NCBI GenBank assembly: GCA_047601445.1
Contig: JASGJH010000001.1
Span: 6,112,001-6,176,000, forward strand
Source of the DNA: Myxococcales bacterium
GTDB lineage: Bacteria > Myxococcota_A > Polyangia > Polyangiales > DASUME01
Direction: 5' to 3'
Length of the DNA: 64,000 nt
The position numbers were made by a program, and so were the translations under genes. Shown here one piece after another: positions 50,086 through 59,037 of the stretch (its first letter is position 1; each line of letters begins with the position of its first letter). The notes beneath the pieces are model-generated. The model was given only the letters and a program-made list of their open reading frames with translations, made no database searches and had not been told where the DNA came from.

Positions 50086-50272
50086 TGACTTCGCAGGGTA
50101 TCAAAGCGAAAGCGGTGCAGCCCAGCAAAGTGAACGAGCGAAATCCATCCCTTGCGCCTCCTCACCGATCTGTCCTGGAGGAACACGACACGCAATTGGG
50201 CTGAGTATCACAAAAGATTCGTGCGCGGTGCTTCCTTGACTGCCCAGGGTGGGAGCAACACCTTACGCTGCC

Positions 50273-51696
50273 GTGTCGAAGCCCAAAAAGACGATCCACT
50301 TTGTCTCGCTCGGATGTCCCAAGAACCGAGTCGATACCGAGGTCATGCTCGGCGTGGGTGCGGGTGAGGGCTTCAAGAATCGTGGCGGACCCCAGTCAGG
50401 CCGAAGTGATCGTCGTGAACACCTGCGGGTTCATCGGTCCGGCCAAGGAAGAGTCCATCGATACCATCCTGGAGATGGGCTCCTTCAAGGAGAGCGGCAG
50501 CTGCAAGAAGCTGGTGGTCTCGGGCTGCCTCTCGCAGCGCTATCCGGAAGAGCTCGCCAAGGAGATGCCCGAGGTGGACTACTTCTTGGGCTCGAGCGAC
50601 ATGCTCAAACTCGGCGATGTGCTGCGCGCCAACGAGAAGCACCCCCTGGAGCGCGTGCTGGTGGGCAACCCCGCGGATTACACCTTCCGCGCCACGGACC
50701 CGCGCCTGCCCTCCATGGCCACCCACAGCGCTTACGTGAAGATCGCCGAGGGTTGCTCGCGCAAGTGCAGCTTCTGCATCATCCCGAGTATGCGCGGCAC
50801 CCAGCGCTCGCGTCCGGTCGAGGACATCGTGAGCGAAGTGGAGCAGCTCGTCTCGCGCGGGACCCAGGAAATCAACCTGGTTTCCCAGGACACCATCTCC
50901 TACGGGCGCGACCTCAAGCAAGACGGGCGCAACCTGTCGCATCTGGTGCAGGCCCTGGGCGAGGTGAAGGGCCTCAAGTGGCTGCGCCTGTTCTATCTCT
51001 ATCCCGAGCGTCTCACCGAAGAGATCATCGAGCTGTTGGCGCACCACCCGAAGGTCCTGCCCTACGTGGACATGCCGCTGCAGCACGCCAGCGACCGCAT
51101 GCTCAAGCTCATGCGCCGCGGCCACGGGCCCGACCGCCAGCGCAAGCTGGTGGAGCGCATGCGCACCGAGATCCCGAACCTCACCTTCCGCACCGCTTTC
51201 ATCGTCGGCCATCCTGGGGAGACGGATGCGGACTTCGCGGAGCTGTGCGACTTCGTGAAGTGGGCCGAGTTCGACCGCGTGGGCGTGTTCAAGTACTCCC
51301 ACGAGGAAGGCACGCGCTCGGGGACGCTCGACGAGGAAGTCCCGAGCAAGACCATCGCCGCGCGCCATCGCAAGCTCATGCAGATCCAGCGCCCCATCAG
51401 CCGCAAGAAGATGCGCCGCATGGTGGGCAGCCGAGATCGAGGTCCTGGTGGAGGGCGTGAGCGACGAGAGCGAGTTCTTGCTCGAAGGTCGCCACGCGGG
51501 CCAGGCCCCGGACATCGACGGCAAGGTGTACCTCGCCAACGGGGAGGCCAAGCCCGGTGAGATCCGCAAGGCCATGGTGACCGACGCCGCCGACTACGAT
51601 CTCGTGGCGGACCTGCTGCCCCGCGAGGGGGGCGGACTCGACCGACCGCCGGGCGCCAAGCGGGTGCGCCTGCGCACGCTCAACGGGCAGGTCTGA
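50273..51696 (+). CDS. rimO: Ribosomal protein S12 methylthiotransferase, with two +1 frameshifts (near 50378 and 51432)
   Basis: SLGCPKNRVD, VNTCGFI, EGCSRKCSFC, APDIDG (TRAM domain). Confidence 0.92.
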
Positions 51697-51789: not shown

Positions 51790-52095
51790 ATGAATCCAGG
51801 CCAGCTCACGCTAGACAGCCGCATCCGGCCCTCCGACAAGACCTTGTTTCGCAACGTGGAAGGGGAGGCCGTGCTCCTCGGATTGAATGCGGGTTCCTAT
51901 TTCGGGCTCGACCCCGTGGGCACCCGCATGTGGGAGCTGATCGCCGAGCGCGGCCTCTTGCGGGACGTGGTGAGCGGCATCGTGGCCGAGTTCGAGGTCG
52001 ACGCGGCGCGCGTCGAAACCGACCTCCTTAAGCTGGTTTCCGCATTGCTGGAGAAGCAGCTGGTGGAGCTCGCTGGGTCCGGCCCGCATCCCTGA
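51790..52095 (+). CDS. PqqD-family RiPP recognition element (lasso B1-like)
   Basis: EGEAVLL...YFGLDPVGTRMWELI...EFEVD...DL pattern; about 101 aa. Confidence 0.9.
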   Translation: MNPGQLTLDSRIRPSDKTLFRNVEGEAVLLGLNAGSYFGLDPVGTRMWELIAERGLLRDVVSGIVAEFEVDAARVETDLLKLVSALLEKQLVELAGSGPHP

Positions 52096-52104
52096 GCTGG
52101 CCCC

Positions 52105-54042
52105 ATGAGCGGCATCGCGGGCATCGTGTGCAGCGGAGCGGACCCTCGACCCGGACAGGGCGCTGCGCTCGAACGAATGCTGAGGGCGCTGGAGGCCAAG
52201 GGCCCGGACGGTGCCTCGCGCTGGCAGGAAGGGCCTGCATCGCTGGGCCTCACCCTGTTTCGCAGTACGCCCGAGCAAGCGCATGAACACGGGCCGACAC
52301 AGGTCGAGCATGTGGTCGTGGTGGCCGACGCTCGGCTCGACGAGCGTACGGAGCTGCTCGATCTGCTCGAGGTGCCTGCCCATGCCCATGACGGCATCCC
52401 GGATAGTGAGCTCATCGCGCGTGCCTATTTGCGCTGGGGCGCCGAAGGCTTCGGCCGCCTGCGAGGAGATTTCGCCCTCGCACTCTGGGATCGACAGCAG
52501 CGGACGCTGTGGTGCGCGCGGGACGTGTTCGCGGTGCGGCCTTTCTACTACGCGGAACTGCCGCAGGGCTTCATGTTCGCCTCGAACTTCGAAGCGTTCC
52601 GCCAAAGCGAGCTGATCGCGGCCGCGGTGGATCCGGTCCGCGTGCACGACGCGCTCACCTGGCGCTGGCTCGAGTTCGGGGAACCGGGACGCACGTACTA
52701 TCGCGACATCATGCGCCTGCCAGCCGGTCATGTGCTGCGCTTCCAGGCTGGGCAGCTGCGCCTGCAGCGCGTGGATCTCTTGCGGCCCACGCGGGATCCG
52801 CTACCGCGGGACTCTCGCGAGCTGCCGCTGCTGTTCCGGCATCACTACAAGCGTGCGGTGGCGCGCCGCCTCAGAGCCGAGCGCCCAGTGGCCTCGATGT
52901 TGAGCGGCGGCCTCGATTCCGGAAGCGTCGTGTGCCTGGCCCGCGAGGTCTTGCGTGAGCGCGGCGGGCCGCAGCTCATCACGTGCTCGGTGTTGGGGGA
53001 TCCACCCCTCGACGGCGAGACCCCCTACGTGCGCGCCGTTCAGGCGAGCGGGGACCTTCGTTGTCACGACCTGACCTTTGCGCGCCTCCCAGAGCTCGGA
53101 CCCGTGATGAGCCGCTACTTCGAGCGCTCGCCCTGTATGCCCGTCGAGTGGGCCTACTGTCAGATGATGCTCGCCTGCTCGGTCAGCGCGCGCGAGGCGG
53201 GCGCCCGCGTCCTGCTGACCGGCGAGACAGGTGACATCGCCCTCGGCGTGGCTTGCAACCCCACACGCCGGGCGCTGCAGGAGGGCAAGGTCGTGGAGGC
53301 CTACGGGCTGCGACTGGAGGAGGCGCGCTTTGTGGGCTGGAGCGGGCGCGAGCTCATGACTTCGTGGCTCGCCGACAGCACCTGGTTCCTCCAGCAGGAC
53401 GTGCTGCAACGGGTGTCTCCTGCGTTCCACTGGGCACGCAGGAAGCGGCGCCATGCGGTCTGGAGGCGCGCGCTGCAGGCCGAGCGGCCAGAGCTCAAGT
53501 CGCTGCCGGAGCCCCTGGCTGCCGAGTTCTTGAGCCGCTTCCACGAGGTGCAGGTGGCCGCCGAGTGGCCCAATCGCGAACGCGAGGATCACTATTTCGC
53601 CAACGGAGTCGATCGCGGCATGGCCGGGGTCGGCGAGGCATACGACCGGGTCTGCAGCGCCCATGGGGTCGAGGCCCGCCACCCGATCTTGGACCGGGAT
53701 CTCGTGGAATTCTGCATGGCAGTGCCCTGGCGCGAGCGCCGGCTGGGAGGAACCAACAAGTCCCTCCTCAGGCGTGCGGAGATCCTGCCCGAGCTGCACG
53801 AGCGTCAGCGGCCCATGCCGAACGTGAACACCGAGGCGCGCCACACCATGTGTGCCCAGGTGGGACCATGGCTTGGGGACCGGCTTGCCAACGTGCAGGC
53901 GGCCTTTCAGTGGGCGACTGAGGACTACGTCAGGCAGCTCGAGCAGAGCTTCCGTGCGAGCCCTGCTCTCGGGGGAAACAGGCTCGACCAAGTGCTTGAG
54001 CTCATTGCGCTTGATGCCTGGGCGGGGCCGCGCGCGAGTTGA
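52105..54042 (+). CDS. Asparagine-synthetase-like lasso cyclase (C protein)
   Basis: MSGIAG (glutaminase Cys replaced by Ser), LSGGLDS, LLTGETGD, EARHPILDRDLVEF. Confidence 0.88.
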   Translation: MSGIAGIVCSGADPRPGQGAALERMLRALEAKGPDGASRWQEGPASLGLTLFRSTPEQAHEHGPTQVEHVVVVADARLDERTELLDLLEVPAHAHDGIPDSELIARAYLRWGAEGFGRLRGDFALALWDRQQRTLWCARDVFAVRPFYYAELPQGFMFASNFEAFRQSELIAAAVDPVRVHDALTWRWLEFGEPGRTYYRDIMRLPAGHVLRFQAGQLRLQRVDLLRPTRDPLPRDSRELPLLFRHHYKRAVARRLRAERPVASMLSGGLDSGSVVCLAREVLRERGGPQLITCSVLGDPPLDGETPYVRAVQASGDLRCHDLTFARLPELGPVMSRYFERSPCMPVEWAYCQMMLACSVSAREAGARVLLTGETGDIALGVACNPTRRALQEGKVVEAYGLRLEEARFVGWSGRELMTSWLADSTWFLQQDVLQRVSPAFHWARRKRRHAVWRRALQAERPELKSLPEPLAAEFLSRFHEVQVAAEWPNREREDHYFANGVDRGMAGVGEAYDRVCSAHGVEARHPILDRDLVEFCMAVPWRERRLGGTNKSLLRRAEILPELHERQRPMPNVNTEARHTMCAQVGPWLGDRLANVQAAFQWATEDYVRQLEQSFRASPALGGNRLDQVLELIALDAWAGPRAS

Positions 54043-54067: not shown

Positions 54068-54137
54068 GTGAACGCCCGACGGGGGTCTGGCAACCAACAT
54101 CACGGGGCTGGAGCTCCCACGAACTTGGGGATGAATC

Positions 54138-54317
54138 GTGTCGAATCCGAACAACACCGTGCGCAAGTCCTACAGCGAGCCTCGTCTGGAAGAGTACGGT
54201 GCCCTGACCGATCTCACCCGCTCGTCGCTCTTGTCGATGAACAACCAAGAGAACCTGAAGACCCCCACCCAGTGTCAGATGCCGAACGGTGACCGGACCG
54301 GTCCCAAGCCCTGCTGA
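54138..54317 (+). CDS. Lasso-type RiPP precursor peptide (59 aa; absent from ORF track)
   Basis: MSNPNNTVRKSYSEPRLEEYGALTDLTR-SSLLSMNNQENLKTPTQCQMPNGDRTGPKPC; YxxPxLxxxGxxxxxT leader; GGGGA RBS; TGATG overlap with next gene. Confidence 0.9.
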   Translation: MSNPNNTVRKSYSEPRLEEYGALTDLTRSSLLSMNNQENLKTPTQCQMPNGDRTGPKPC

Positions 54318-55477
54318 TGGGCGCGTACTCGCTCGGCTCCTACGCGAGCATGCTGGCGTGCCGTACCCGCATGCCCGCCTATTTCGAGGCGCTTGAACGC
54401 ACGGTCAAGCCGGGGTCCGTTGTCCTCGACCTCGGGGCCGGATTCGGATACTTCGCGCTGCTGGCCTGTCGCTTGGGCGCGGCCCGTGTGTACGCCATCG
54501 AGCCCGCTGAGTCGATCTCCGTGGCCGCCGAGCTGGCGCGCCTGAACGGCTTTGGCGATCGCATCGTTCCCATCCGTGATAGCTCGCGCAATGTGAAGCT
54601 CCCGGAGCGCGTCGATGTGATCGTCTCGGACATCCGCGGTGCGCTCCCGACCATCGGCGGTTCGCTGCGAACCCTGATCGACGCCCGCGATCGGTTGCTC
54701 GCTCCAGGCGGTACCTTGATTCCCTGGCGTGATCGTCTGTGGGTTGCCCCGATCGACGATCGCCCTCAGTGGCAGCGCTCGGTGCGCCCGTGGGCCGTGG
54801 TAGCCGAGGCGTTCGAGCCGGCTCGTGGGCTCAACCTGACGCCCGTCGAAGAGCGCCTGGTCCACTACACTCGCTCCAGCGAGCTGCTGATCGCGTCGTT
54901 CATGGCCACGCCTCAGATCTGGGCCGAGATCGACTATCACACGAACCAGAACACCGACGTCGAGGGCGCGGTGGAGTTCCAGATTGCGGAGCGCGGCACC
55001 GTCTACACCCTGGGCATCTGGTTCGACGCGGAGCTGATGGAAGGCATCCGCTACGCGTCGGGGCCGGAGCGCGGCACCGTGTATGCGAACATGAGCCTGC
55101 CGTTGAGCCAGCCGCTGAGCGTGCAGCCGGGCGACACACTGAAAGTTCGCCTTCTCTCCAGCGACATCGGTGGGACCTATCACCTGAGCTGGTGGACCTC
55201 CCTGATCCGCGGCGGACAAACGCTGAGCTCGTTTCAGCAGAGCGACTTCTTGTCGGAGCCGCTAGTGCTCGATCGCTTCAAGCAGCGTCTGCCCAACCAC
55301 ATGCCCAAGCTTGAGCGCCGCGCGGAGATCGTGCGGCAGATTCTGGATGGCGCTCACGCAGGGCTCAGCCTCGGGCAGATCGCAGCGAAGTTGATGGAGA
55401 ACTTCCCCGACCGTTTCGAGAGCACGACCGCCGCGCTGGAGCACGCCGCCAACGCTTTCGAGCTGTTCAACGGCTGA
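54317..55477 (+). CDS. PRMT-like SAM-dependent methyltransferase
   Basis: MLxxxxRxxAY, VLDLGAGFG, VYAIE, PERVDVIVSD, RDRLLAPGGTLIP, WFDAEL. Confidence 0.8.
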   Translation: MGAYSLGSYASMLACRTRMPAYFEALERTVKPGSVVLDLGAGFGYFALLACRLGAARVYAIEPAESISVAAELARLNGFGDRIVPIRDSSRNVKLPERVDVIVSDIRGALPTIGGSLRTLIDARDRLLAPGGTLIPWRDRLWVAPIDDRPQWQRSVRPWAVVAEAFEPARGLNLTPVEERLVHYTRSSELLIASFMATPQIWAEIDYHTNQNTDVEGAVEFQIAERGTVYTLGIWFDAELMEGIRYASGPERGTVYANMSLPLSQPLSVQPGDTLKVRLLSSDIGGTYHLSWWTSLIRGGQTLSSFQQSDFLSEPLVLDRFKQRLPNHMPKLERRAEIVRQILDGAHAGLSLGQIAAKLMENFPDRFESTTAALEHAANAFELFNG

Positions 55478-55483
55478 CCGGTC

Positions 55484-56374
55484 ATGCCGACGTATTCGAT
55501 TCTGGGACTTCGGTTCGAGCTGCCCTGGAGCCTCGATCTGCCGGCAGTAGAGGAGCCGGCGGACTACCAGGTGACATTCGGCCCGGTCGAGGATGTTCCC
55601 GACGATCCTGCGATCGACTCGCCCTTGATGACGCGCAAGGGACGCGCGCTGGAGCTCTCCATGGGCGGCATCTGCCGCATGGTGGTGCCCGGCCAGGGCA
55701 CGCCCGCCCAGGTCGAGTGCTATCCCCACCGCGAGCAAAGCATCGAGGAGGTCAAGCGACAGGTCCTCGAGCACCTCATTCCGCGGCTGCTCTCACGGCA
55801 CTACCAGCTGGTGTTGCACGCGAGCTGTGCCGTGTTCGAGCACAATGCGCTCGGGTTCTTCGCTCGCTCGGGAAGCGGCAAGTCCACCATGGCGCTGGCG
55901 ATGGCGCGTGCGGGCGCCACGATTTTGGGCGACGACAGCCTGGTGCTCGATCGAGGTCCCGATGGCGCCATGGCGCGTGCGCTGTGGTCCACCGTGCGCG
56001 CCTTCAACGACAGCCTGAGCACCACGCTGGAGGTCGAGCGTCCCGACGCCGAGAGCAGCAAGATCGTGCTCACCCACGGTGAGGCGGCACGGCTTACTTT
56101 CGAGCGCGGGGCGCATCCGCTGAAGGCCCTGTATGCGCTCGAAGAGAGCGACGAGATCCGGATTCTGCCCATGAGTCCGCGCGAGGCCATGTTGGCGCTC
56201 CTGCGAGAGGCCTATCACCTCGAGTTCGACGACATGAAGGGCATGGCCGAACTGATGGCGCGAACCGAGCAACTCGGGCTCACGCGGCGCACCTTTCGGC
56301 TCGCCTATCCTCGCGATTTCGCGCGCCTGCCGGAGGTGGTCGCGCGCGTGCGCGCACATGCGGCGAGCTTGTAG
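55484..56374 (+). CDS. HPr-kinase-like peptide kinase
   Basis: VLHAS, SGSGKST, LGDD. Confidence 0.82.
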   Translation: MPTYSILGLRFELPWSLDLPAVEEPADYQVTFGPVEDVPDDPAIDSPLMTRKGRALELSMGGICRMVVPGQGTPAQVECYPHREQSIEEVKRQVLEHLIPRLLSRHYQLVLHASCAVFEHNALGFFARSGSGKSTMALAMARAGATILGDDSLVLDRGPDGAMARALWSTVRAFNDSLSTTLEVERPDAESSKIVLTHGEAARLTFERGAHPLKALYALEESDEIRILPMSPREAMLALLREAYHLEFDDMKGMAELMARTEQLGLTRRTFRLAYPRDFARLPEVVARVRAHAASL

Positions 56375-56376
56375 CG

Positions 56377-58137
56377 ATGTCCCCCCTCTACGCCCGCGCT
56401 AGAGGCCTCCTGCTCCCACGCTGGCGGCTCGTGGTCCTCGCCATCGCTTTTGCCTTTCTGTCGGCCCTCACGGACGCGGGATTCGCGATCACAGCAGGCG
56501 GCGTGGCTGGCTGGCTGTTCGACAAAGCAGGCAGCCAGTCGTCGATTGTGGCGGCCTTCGGTGTCGATCGCGGCTTCGGCCTCGTCATGGGTCTCGGCCT
56601 GATCGCCGGCCTGCGTGCTCTCGGTACGCTCGGCGCGGCCTGGGTAACCGCGCGCCTGGGCTCGGAGATCGCCCACGAGCTACGTACGGAGCTCTACGAG
56701 CGCACGGCGTTGAATGCGCTGCCCCGGGTCCTGGCCCACCACCGCGGCGAAGTCGTCTCGCGGCTCCAGGACGACGTAGAGACCATTCAGGTAACACTCA
56801 CGTACTCCGTCACCGGCATCGCGCACACCGTGCTCTCCACGTTGATGGTGGGCAGTGTGATCTTGTCGATCGATCCCTGGGTCGGTCTCTCGTGTTTCGT
56901 GGGCGCCCCGCTGGCGGCGCTGGTGGTTCGTCTGGCGAACCGCCGCTTCTACGTGCTCTATGAGCAGCTTCGCCAGGACCACGGCATGCTCATGGGACGC
57001 ATCGAAGAGATCGTGGATGCGGGGGATGTGGTGCGCAGTCTGGGCGGCGAGCGCAGGGTCATCGAGCGCTTCACCAAGCTTTCGGAGCGCGTGAAACAGG
57101 CATCGCTAGAGGTTGCGCGCACGTCCGCTTTGACCAAGCCGATACTGTCCCTGGTGGGCGCCCTCGGCCTTGGTGTGCTGTTGGTCTATTGGAACTCGGG
57201 AAATGCGCCGGCTCCTGCCGAGCAAGCCGCGCTGTTGGCCGCTGCGGCCATCTTGATTCGCCCGCTCCATGCGGTGTCGCGCTGGTACGAGGTGGTGGCC
57301 TCGACACGCAGCTCGTTCCTGCGGGTGGACGAGATTCTGCAGACCCCACGAGTGGAGCTCGCTTCGGACGAACCCACGCAGCGACCGGATGCGCAAGCCT
57401 TGCGTGCTCGGGAACTGGCGTTCGCATTCGGGGAGACGTCGGTCTTCACAGGCGTGTCTTTCGAGCTCCGGCGCGGCCAAGTGCTGGCGGTGGTGGGCCC
57501 GAGCGGTAGCGGCAAGACCACCTTGCTCAGGCTCCTCACGGGCTCACTCGAGCCTGCGACGGGTAGCGTAGAGATCGACGGCAAAACTCGGGCGGACATG
57601 GAAATGCGCAGCTACCGCCGGCATTTTGCCTGGGTCCCCCAGGAAGCGCGCTTGTTGTTCGACAGCGTGGCCGAAAACCTGCGACTCGGTCGACCCGGGG
57701 CGAGCGACCTCGAGCTTAGCCAGGCCCTGCAAGCCGCCGACTTCCCGCTTTCGGCTCAGCACTTTCCGCAAGGCCTGGAGACCAAGATCGCCGACGACGG
57801 ATCGCCGTTTTCGGTCGGGCAACGACAGCGCTTGTGCATTGCTCGCGCGCTGCTCACGCAGGCGCCTTTCTTGGTGCTAGACGAGCCCACGGCTGCGCTC
57901 GACGAACGTACAGCCGAGGAACTCCACCGAACCCTGCTCGGGTTGCGCGAACGGTTGGGCGTGTGCCTCGCGACCCATCGCTTGAGCAGCGTAGAGCAGT
58001 GCGATTGGGTGGTCGTGCTCGAGGGAGGGCGGGTGGTCGAAGAAGGGCGCCCCGCAGATCTGCGCCAGCGTGGTGACCGCTTCCGTTCGCTGTTCGCTCA
58101 GGACATCGTGCGCCTGGAGGCGGGCAAGGTCGGCTGA
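56377..58137 (+). CDS. ABC exporter (TMD+NBD), no peptidase domain
   Basis: GPSGSGKTT, FSVGQRQR, LDEPTAALD, THRL; sequence starts directly with TM helices. Confidence 0.92.
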   Translation: MSPLYARARGLLLPRWRLVVLAIAFAFLSALTDAGFAITAGGVAGWLFDKAGSQSSIVAAFGVDRGFGLVMGLGLIAGLRALGTLGAAWVTARLGSEIAHELRTELYERTALNALPRVLAHHRGEVVSRLQDDVETIQVTLTYSVTGIAHTVLSTLMVGSVILSIDPWVGLSCFVGAPLAALVVRLANRRFYVLYEQLRQDHGMLMGRIEEIVDAGDVVRSLGGERRVIERFTKLSERVKQASLEVARTSALTKPILSLVGALGLGVLLVYWNSGNAPAPAEQAALLAAAAILIRPLHAVSRWYEVVASTRSSFLRVDEILQTPRVELASDEPTQRPDAQALRARELAFAFGETSVFTGVSFELRRGQVLAVVGPSGSGKTTLLRLLTGSLEPATGSVEIDGKTRADMEMRSYRRHFAWVPQEARLLFDSVAENLRLGRPGASDLELSQALQAADFPLSAQHFPQGLETKIADDGSPFSVGQRQRLCIARALLTQAPFLVLDEPTAALDERTAEELHRTLLGLRERLGVCLATHRLSSVEQCDWVVVLEGGRVVEEGRPADLRQRGDRFRSLFAQDIVRLEAGKVG

Positions 58138-58170: not shown

Positions 58171-59037
58171 TCAGGAGCCGATCAGCTCGAACTCGTTCTC
58201 ATCGTCGTGACTCTCTTGAGCATCGGCGGTGACCTGCGCACGGCGCTCGGCTCGCAGCTTGTTGACGCGGGCCACGTCGACCTTGAGTCGGGGCAATAGG
58301 GTCCGATTCACCAGCTCGAGCTTGGTCACCATGGGGCGCGTAAGTGGACGCTGCTTACGTACCATCTCGTAGAACTCTTCGAACACCGTGGCGATGCTCG
58401 CTTCTACGCTCGCGTTTTGGGCGCGCGCGCGCTGGGTCCGATGCTCCGGCCGCACTGCTTCCAGCGCGGCGCTGAGGTCCCCACCGCCAACGAACGAGAG
58501 CGCCTCACGCACGGTGCGCTCAGGCTCCTCGAGCATCGTGTCGTAGGCCCAGAGGCGGAGCGGGTACTTGCGGCGCAGACCGTCGACCAGCAGGCCGTAG
58601 TTGCAGGTCCACCACTCGAATACCGGGTCGAGTCGGGCCGGCGGCTCGAAGTTGGGGTGCTTCTGACGACGGGAGTCATCCTCCATCTTCCACATGCGTC
58701 GGCGCGACTCCTCGTACTCGCGGAAGTCGCGCATGCTGGCGATCACGCGTCCGAGGTAGCGCGGGTTCGTCCGCACCACGCCTGGCACGAAGATCTTCAC
58801 CACGTGCTTCTCGAACTGCGCGGGATCGAGCGCTCGACCCGTGGTCGGATCGAGCTCGGCCTTACCGTAGACCCCGCGCCGGAGCTTCGACTCGTAGAAC
58901 CCTTCCGGATTCGCCGCGCCGATGCTCTCCTTCCACTGACCAGGAAAGCGCTCGCCGAGATAGGGTAGCCCGGCCGCGATGAGGACTTGCATCCACATCG
59001 ACGTTCCAGAGCGTTTGGTGCCGGTGACCACGATCAC
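58171..59037 (-). CDS. Sulfotransferase-like P-loop protein
   Basis: N-terminal IVVTGTKRSGTSM resembles the PAPS-binding loop; NPEGFYE; YDTMLEEP. Confidence 0.6.
   Translation of the reverse strand: MIVVTGTKRSGTSMWMQVLIAAGLPYLGERFPGQWKESIGAANPEGFYESKLRRGVYGKAELDPTTGRALDPAQFEKHVVKIFVPGVVRTNPRYLGRVIASMRDFREYEESRRRMWKMEDDSRRQKHPNFEPPARLDPVFEWWTCNYGLLVDGLRRKYPLRLWAYDTMLEEPERTVREALSFVGGGDLSAALEAVRPEHRTQRARAQNASVEASIATVFEEFYEMVRKQRPLTRPMVTKLELVNRTLLPRLKVDVARVNKLRAERRAQVTADAQESHDDENEFELIGS

Follow-up and report, generated by a model that had tools for sequence, protein, structure and literature searches.

A conserved lasso-type precursor with a candidate ring acceptor at core position 10 in a Myxococcales bacterium

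A small gene in the window, by which we mean the whole analysed stretch of 64,000 nucleotides, is by its sequence features a genuine precursor of a lasso-type peptide. We give a probability of about 0.6 to the reading that this precursor matures into a lasso-type RiPP whose macrolactam has 10 residues and is probably held by a disulfide. The predicted ring would be one residue larger than that of any natural lasso described so far, and the locus appears to work like a lasso pathway, yet one that departs from the defining features of lassos in its acceptor position and in lacking a local B2 leader peptidase. Lassos have been structurally characterised with rings of 7, 8 and 9 residues according to the accessible text of a June 2026 review (PMC13352647), in line with the statement in the initial annotation that natural rings typically use Asp or Glu at positions 7-9. 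The same rule is found in the available parts of PMC6993621, PMC8498205, PMC12214591, PMC13060267 and bioRxiv 2020.11.25.399105. Neither a natural 10-residue lasso nor a PRMT-like lasso methyltransferase was returned by a literature search confined largely to main texts outside subscription journals; mining tables in supplements may hold such precursors.

The precursor belongs to a set of genes that follow each other on a single strand in the order RRE, cyclase, precursor, methyltransferase, kinase and ABC exporter; the successive gaps measure 9, 95, 0, 6 and 2 bases:

51790..52095, + strand: RRE, a PqqD-type leader-binding protein (B1); open reading frame readable from 51739
52105..54042, + strand: lasso cyclase with asparagine-synthetase fold, 645 aa; NF033535 is the best family
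54127..54131, + strand: putative ribosome-binding site GGGGA, 6 nt 5' of the GTG, suggested by the sequence
54138..54221, + strand: leader peptide, 28 aa; YxxPxL at 54171-54188, Thr(-2) at 54216-54218, Arg(-1)
54222..54317, + strand: core peptide, 31 aa and stop; Ser1, Ser5, Glu10 (54249-54251), Asn11
54273-54275 and 54312-54314, + strand: core Cys18 and Cys31, the latter within the terminal Lys-Pro-Cys31
54317..55477, + strand: PRMT-fold SAM methyltransferase, 386 aa; PDB sequence matches to PRMTs, Atlas
55484..56374, + strand: HPr-kinase-related peptide kinase; TIGR04352 E 1e-5, below the cut-off
56377..58137, + strand: ABC exporter with membrane and ATPase domains; Pfam

The start of the RRE was taken from its orthologue in locus L046. 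The protein matches PF05402 (E 2e-13), and its best NCBIfam family is lasso_PqqD_Bac (52.9 bits, below the cut-off of 80). As is typical of lasso clusters, the RRE and an asparagine-synthetase-like cyclase adjoin the precursor, with the ATP motif present and the amidotransferase Cys absent from the cyclase. The Pfam matches of the exporter include no peptidase domain. Upstream, a rimO-type radical SAM gene (50249-51696, +) is read in three frames, with frameshifts near 50370 and 51430 that are probably assembly indels, or possibly mark a broken gene.

The precursor itself is a 59-codon open reading frame at 54138-54317 (+), translated from a GTG start to a TGA stop that shares bases with the ATG of the downstream methyltransferase gene. 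Because a TGA stands in frame at 54132, no start other than the GTG is possible. G or C occupies the third codon position in 49 of the 59 codons, compared with 30 for the first position and 28 for the second, and in 27/31 codons of the core alone. The hidden 59-aa precursor first proposed is hence a real gene, as judged from translation, codon bias, its enzyme neighbours and two orthologues. These orthologues begin 3-4 residues upstream (MG(K)TVSN), and the corresponding Val codon serves as the start here (54131-54140); an out-of-frame ATG is found at 54131, and the core and leader motif are unchanged by the start difference. For a cut after Arg28, the leader places Tyr12 at -17, Pro at -14, Leu at -12 and Thr27 at -2, the spacing given for lasso leaders in the accessible text of PMC10368454, and the leader motif with Thr at -2 noted earlier therefore stands in the standard lasso register. 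The core, SSLLSMNNQENLKTPTQCQMPNGDRTGPKPC, has N-N-Q at positions 7-9, Glu10 as its first and Asp24 as its second acidic residue, and no aromatic residue; Glu10, N-N-Q, Cys18 and Cys31 are all found in the translation as the initial annotation had them. The strict leader motif has eight matches in the 9.5 Mb genome, two of which (the precursor and one other) adjoin lasso enzymes. The peptide scores weakly with NF033521 (13.9 bits, cut-off 19), and its Atlas matches, at most 0.90 and all unnamed, are a lead only. Promoter and terminator scans at the locus gave results at chance level.

Two orthologues were recovered, P0083 by a full HMMER scan (E 6e-5) and P0084 by a two-sequence profile (E 8e-15). 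They lie on contigs of 1276 and 2022 bp and probably belong to a similar operon. The last 10 leader residues, EYGALTDLTR, are identical in all three clade members, and the identical block stops exactly at Arg28; after it the cores read SGSPSKTVNENRNSMTGLCGTGTMRKPC in P0083 and ASSASKPQTENMCPPNGTNTMKEIKSC in P0084. An alignment of homologous precursors had been suggested as a check on the acceptor, and it places Glu10 there in 3/3. Invariant in register across the cores are Ser5, Glu10, Asn11 and a terminal K-x-C, while any pair of cores shares only 2-3 of the ring positions 1-9, and positions 1-22 hold no Asp or Glu besides Glu10. Since Glu10 was kept while other ring positions differ, it is under selection. 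When the three cores were shuffled 200,000 times, the first acid fell at a common position in 0.16%, which overstates the case because the cores are kin. Lys13, Asn7, Asn8, Gln9 and Asp24 are not conserved among the cores, so that side-chain rings through these residues are unsupported; Lys13, Asp24 and the Asn/Gln residues were rejected as ring partners on this ground. Two further sequences from the HMMER scan, P0081 and P0082, were dropped as repeat-protein artefacts. Word matching with the single sequence against 5.8 billion proteins retrieved the query itself only. Members of the EYGALTDLTR clade were missing from overlapping samples of 400 further genomes of the order and 400 of the phylum, as well as from the viral contigs searched.

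The orthologues also bear on the idea that an assembly error or a decaying precursor made Glu10 an accident of this one genome. The two frameshifts in the upstream rimO make indels conceivable, but a slip at Glu10 itself is ruled out by its retention in both orthologues, which are independent records. Moreover, the codon bias holds through the core, the reading frames of the five enzyme and transporter genes are uninterrupted, and the cyclase has relatives at 69% and 52% identity, which together render this explanation extremely improbable.

Whether position 10 is the true count depends on the cut site, and the Thr(-2) rule was therefore applied to 41 other precursors from lasso-type loci, with the first acid sought within positions 6-12. 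The set consists of 23 methyltransferase clusters, 5 own-genus clusters without methyltransferase, the genome's second precursor, and 8 and 4 from further locus sets; the count leaves out a chance motif match in L013 and the loci L077/L078, which duplicate the DNA of L013/L014, and in one set of 11 loci the leader motif was missing from three. The first acid occurs at position 8 in 31, at 9 in 6 and at 10 in 3, and is absent from one, with the caveat that several of the 41 are close kin and that L040 and L153 carry extra acids at 3 and 5. An ordinary acceptor at 8 or 9 is thus obtained for 37/41, and the rule works within this group, many clusters without a local B2 included. Under this standard register all three clade members have Glu10, outside the positions 7, 8 and 9 at which characterised lassos carry Asp or Glu.

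If the cut were shifted, or if one or two N-terminal residues were trimmed off, Glu10 would instead close an ordinary ring of 9 or 8 residues. Characterised peptides set a prior of 7-9, the cluster has no dedicated B2, and the first two core residues are small (Ser-Ser, Ser-Gly, Ala-Ser), which would allow trimming; removal of one residue would leave position 2 (Ser/Gly/Ser) as an acceptable N-terminus. Pseudomycoidin, in addition, can form even without B1/B2, its leader and B2 being dispensable according to the accessible text of PMC6993621. Against this stands the residue that each shift brings to the cut. A shift of +1 leaves Arg at -2 in 3/3, where the available text of PMC10368454 names Thr and, rarely, Ile or Val. 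A shift of +2 gives Ser/Ser/Ala at -2, which is more favourable, but Pro at position 2 of P0083, and a shift of +3 brings this Pro to position 1; the most tolerant cyclase reported still refuses Pro1 (PMC13632552, accessible text). The 37/41 ordinary acceptors under the standard leader spacing, many without a local B2, also speak against a shift, as does L162, a related locus that combines Asp10 with its own B2. We therefore regard the shifted cut as unlikely; the shift by one is disfavoured by the Arg at -2 in 3/3 and keeps some probability because the cluster is without a peptidase of its own. The computed mass of the cyclised, disulfide-bonded and untailored core is 3368.537 Da with the ring at Glu10, and 3281.505 (ring at Glu9) or 3194.473 (Glu8) for the shifted cuts.

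On the peptidase the initial annotation was silent, and the B2 that counts among the marks of lasso clusters is missing here: none was detected in the window by Pfam, NCBIfam or a custom profile built from 13 B2 sequences. All three agree on a single B2 in the genome (G000:C1:6393992-6394525), which lies ~228 kb downstream and has its Cys-His-Glu residues intact. Around it, G000:C1:6391866-6394525 (L001, L009) encodes an ABC ATPase, a permease, an RRE and the B2, with no cyclase or precursor, and is a candidate for a shared maturation and export module. A second lasso cluster at G000:C1:6063876-6067495 (L010, L032) has an RRE, a cyclase, a Trp1/Glu8 precursor and a kinase, again with no B2, and its own-genus relatives include some with B2 and one (L045) without. 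The simplest reading is that the two B2-less clusters would share one peptidase in trans. More broadly, B2 is found at 7/23 methyltransferase loci, of which six are profile seed, and three loci are clipped by contig ends. Ten related genomes with methyltransferase clusters contain no B2 above either library's cut-off, hence other proteases may act; a divergent B2 in G300 was overlooked by both libraries.

A second lineage with the acceptor at position 10 was found among the 41 precursors. Asp10 occurs at three loci, one from the same genus (L040) and two from other families (L161, L162):

L162:3387-11126, - strand: Asp10 locus
L040:3079-7308, - strand: Asp10 locus
L161:8501-13023, + strand: Asp10 locus

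In a quick tree their cyclases group together (SH-aLRT 99, with a long branch for L161), separate from the branch that unites the cyclase of our cluster with its 69% and 52% relatives (support 100). L162 is complete, with RRE, B2, cyclase, precursor, kinase, methyltransferase and exporter, and its B2 exceeds the NF033537 cut-off. Position 10 thus tracks cyclase lineages and occurs where a normal peptidase is encoded. The best match to our methyltransferase is that of L162 (38.7%). A single methyltransferase branch for all position-10 clusters is not claimed, as the trees disagree: a quick full-length tree joined them (support 85), an earlier careful tree without L162 lacked the joint branch, and the catalytic part did not resolve it (AU p 0.41).

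Among the three options first offered for this core, the 10-residue ring is therefore the best supported, by Glu10 invariant in 3/3, by sequence identity that ends at Arg28 and by the independent Asp10 branch (3/3); against it, the clade has three members only and the Thr(-2) rule was applied to a presumed peptidase. In the 10-residue reading, the RRE would bind YxxPxL of the leader, as the motif suggests, and the leader would be removed behind Thr-Arg by a peptidase from another locus, most likely that of the RRE and B2 pair at G000:C1:6393760-6394525, 228 kb away. From family chemistry and conservation, the cyclase would then adenylate Glu10 and join it to the Ser1 amine, and the ABC protein would export the product.

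The cyclase supports this scheme in most, though not all, of its features. NF033535 is its best family at 300 bits (below the cut-off of 525), Ser2 replaces the amidotransferase Cys, and SGGLDS and GxxGD are intact in the alignment. The AlphaFold model (pLDDT 88.9) matches TsnB9, beta-lactam synthetase and AsnB, and among the structure matches listed there is no solved lasso cyclase. The contig of the closest relative (L046, 69%) stops short of the precursor. In a phylum search, NF033535 retrieved mostly asparagine-synthetase-like genes, with a precursor nearby at 2/29 loci. In the late R..K motif, whose Lys is catalytic in related enzymes, the Lys is replaced by Met571; Lys is present in 70% of 76 other homologues, and Met571 also occurs in P0005.

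This replacement, together with other branch-specific changes of the cyclase and the long stem of its branch (1.04), raises the question of whether a lasso ring is formed at all. The diverged cyclase might make another bond or no N-terminal lactam, leaving a product that is phosphorylated, methylated and disulfide-closed; that aromatic plugs and a local B2 are both missing would agree with this. However, the same Lys is also missing from cyclases next to Glu8 and Asp8 precursors (L019, L096), the ATP-binding motifs are intact and the fold is confident. The genome's second cyclase, which stands beside an ordinary Glu8 precursor, scores even lower with NF033535 (265 against 294 bits). Glu10 is also invariant as an acceptor should be, while Lys13, Asp24 and Asn7-Gln9 vary. 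A product with no lasso ring is thus quite improbable.

Each of the three cores contains exactly two Cys and no Phe, Trp or Tyr. The Cys lie at positions 18/31, 19/28 (P0083) and 13/27 (P0084), in all cases beyond the acceptor, as class IV lassos have it, and a second Cys is found in 3/3 clade cores but in 0/23 other cores from methyltransferase clusters. This conservation supports a disulfide between them, as first suggested, while the tail-only arrangement of class IV is not established because the inner Cys moves (13, 18, 19). In P0084 the inner Cys sits three residues past the acceptor, which equals the minimum loop length of LassoPred (PMC12214591, accessible text), and lasso loops of 1-3 residues are also described in the available text of PMC13060267. 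A 10-residue ring without aromatic plugs may lose its threading, although 14/23 ordinary-ring relatives are likewise without aromatics. Given a wide ring and cores free of aromatic plugs, the most plausible lock would be a disulfide cycle, and the conserved pair most likely closes a loop that keeps the tail in place. A more elaborate possibility, which is doubtful, is a natural 10-residue lasso held by a disulfide from the loop to the C-terminal Cys that passes through the lactam ring, with a borrowed peptidase and PRMT-fold tailoring; such a disulfide cycle would make a pretzel-like [1]catenane, a linked topology that falls outside classes I-IV.

The tailoring enzymes bear on the terminal Cys. 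The methyltransferase has a PRMT-like fold, both by its best PDB match (E 8e-23) and by Atlas, and a C-terminal winged-helix (RRE-like) part that TIGR03859 matches weakly (326-366, E 0.05). In PRMTs the second Glu of the double-Glu loop binds Arg, and the THW loop is a further motif. Our enzyme has SDIRGALPTIGGS where PRMTs have SEWMGYF..RES, and TVY instead of THW, and thus lacks both marks of an arginine methyltransferase. Its SDIRG fits the pattern SD[LIV]RG, which stands in for the double-Glu loop in a lasso-linked branch of 18 members (support 100/100). A terminal Met is found in 13/23 cores from methyltransferase clusters but in 0/6 own-genus clusters without the enzyme. This points to a target at the C-terminus that could compete with the disulfide, and the methyltransferase probably, if tentatively, works at or near this end.

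It follows that the terminal Cys could be S-methylated and form no disulfide, which would be compatible with a 10-residue ring. The terminal Met of so many relatives and the missing Arg-binding Glu and THW agree with such a target; the second Cys, present in all clade cores at varying positions and in none of the 23 others, does not, and a carboxyl methylation like that by StspM would leave the thiol free (PMC9266682, accessible text). We regard S-methylation as unlikely. The lasso family with a PRMT-fold methyltransferase and short, Met-ending cores comprises L076, L079, L080, L082, L083, L085, L089-L092, L094, L013 and L014.

The kinase keeps His112, Lys133 and Asp150-Asp151, the His-Lys-Asp-Asp motif described in the accessible text of PMC9266682. 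Paeninodin and pseudomycoidin clusters share this HPr-type kinase, but their enzymes phosphorylate a C-terminal Ser (PMC6993621 and PMC9266682, available parts), whereas the cores of our clade end in K-x-C. As a terminal Ser is missing and BsfK acts on ring Ser3 (PMC10368454, accessible text), the invariant ring Ser5 is a candidate site, which the kinase would probably phosphorylate, although the case is slight.

Among known systems, the cluster resembles bsf of Bradymonas sediminis (BsfA/B1/B2/C/D/K/N), of deltaproteobacterial type, in its RRE, cyclase, HPr-type kinase and exporter and in having YxxPxL at -17 to -12 of the leader. In contrast, bsf has a B2 of its own, a ring between Gly1 and Asp8 and Ile at -2, and the genes named in the accessible text (PMC10368454) include no PRMT-like methyltransferase, while our cluster combines Glu10, Thr at -2 and two Cys with no local B2. 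Class IV lassos (LP2006, pandonodin, felipeptins) contain one disulfide between two post-acceptor Cys, as putatively here, and their clusters need no dedicated oxidase (PMC13352647 and PMC9266682, available parts). The core of 31 aa is near the 33 aa of pandonodin, yet in class IV the ring has 7-9 residues and a tail-tail disulfide is demonstrated, whereas our clade has acceptor 10 and a variable Cys spacing of 9-14 residues. A 10-residue macrolactam made by a lasso cyclase is described for FusC, as fusilassin accepted engineered rings of 7-10 (PMC13352647, PMC8498205 and bioRxiv 2020.11.25.399105, accessible text); that 10-mer is an unnatural variant of a 9-residue ring, while the spacing here is natural and conserved. 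LasF and StspM, carboxyl methyltransferases of the lassomycin type, are likewise SAM enzymes in lasso clusters with a possibly similar C-terminal target, but StspM was modelled on an O-methyltransferase (PMC9266682, accessible text) and our enzyme has the PRMT two-domain fold.

If a 10-residue ring is formed, its cyclase would have evolved for a larger ring, which would be a tool for engineering and would reveal the determinant of ring size. Definitions and prediction tools take the 7-9 rule for granted, so that natural 10-residue rings would be missed systematically; LassoPred, for instance, discards cores without an acid at 7-9 (PMC12214591, available text). With three natural substrates, distinct predicted masses and a related complete locus (L162) that encodes a peptidase of its own, the locus lends itself to testing. 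How an oversized ring stays threaded could likewise be examined on these cores, which lack plugs but conserve the Cys pair.

Several minor observations were made at the compared loci and beside the operon. A precursor at L081:6718-6939 (-), within a rearranged cluster, has a perfect leader and an 8-residue core without an acid. In many methyltransferase clusters the RRE is followed, often at the usual place of B2, by a ~310-aa lipoprotein-like gene (e.g. L077:7679-8695, L083:4543-5511 and L085:12013-12960), of which our cluster has no counterpart. Finally, a 288-aa gene without a Pfam match (58171-59037, -) is convergent on the exporter, and the N-terminal GTKRSGTS of its product resembles a sulfotransferase loop.
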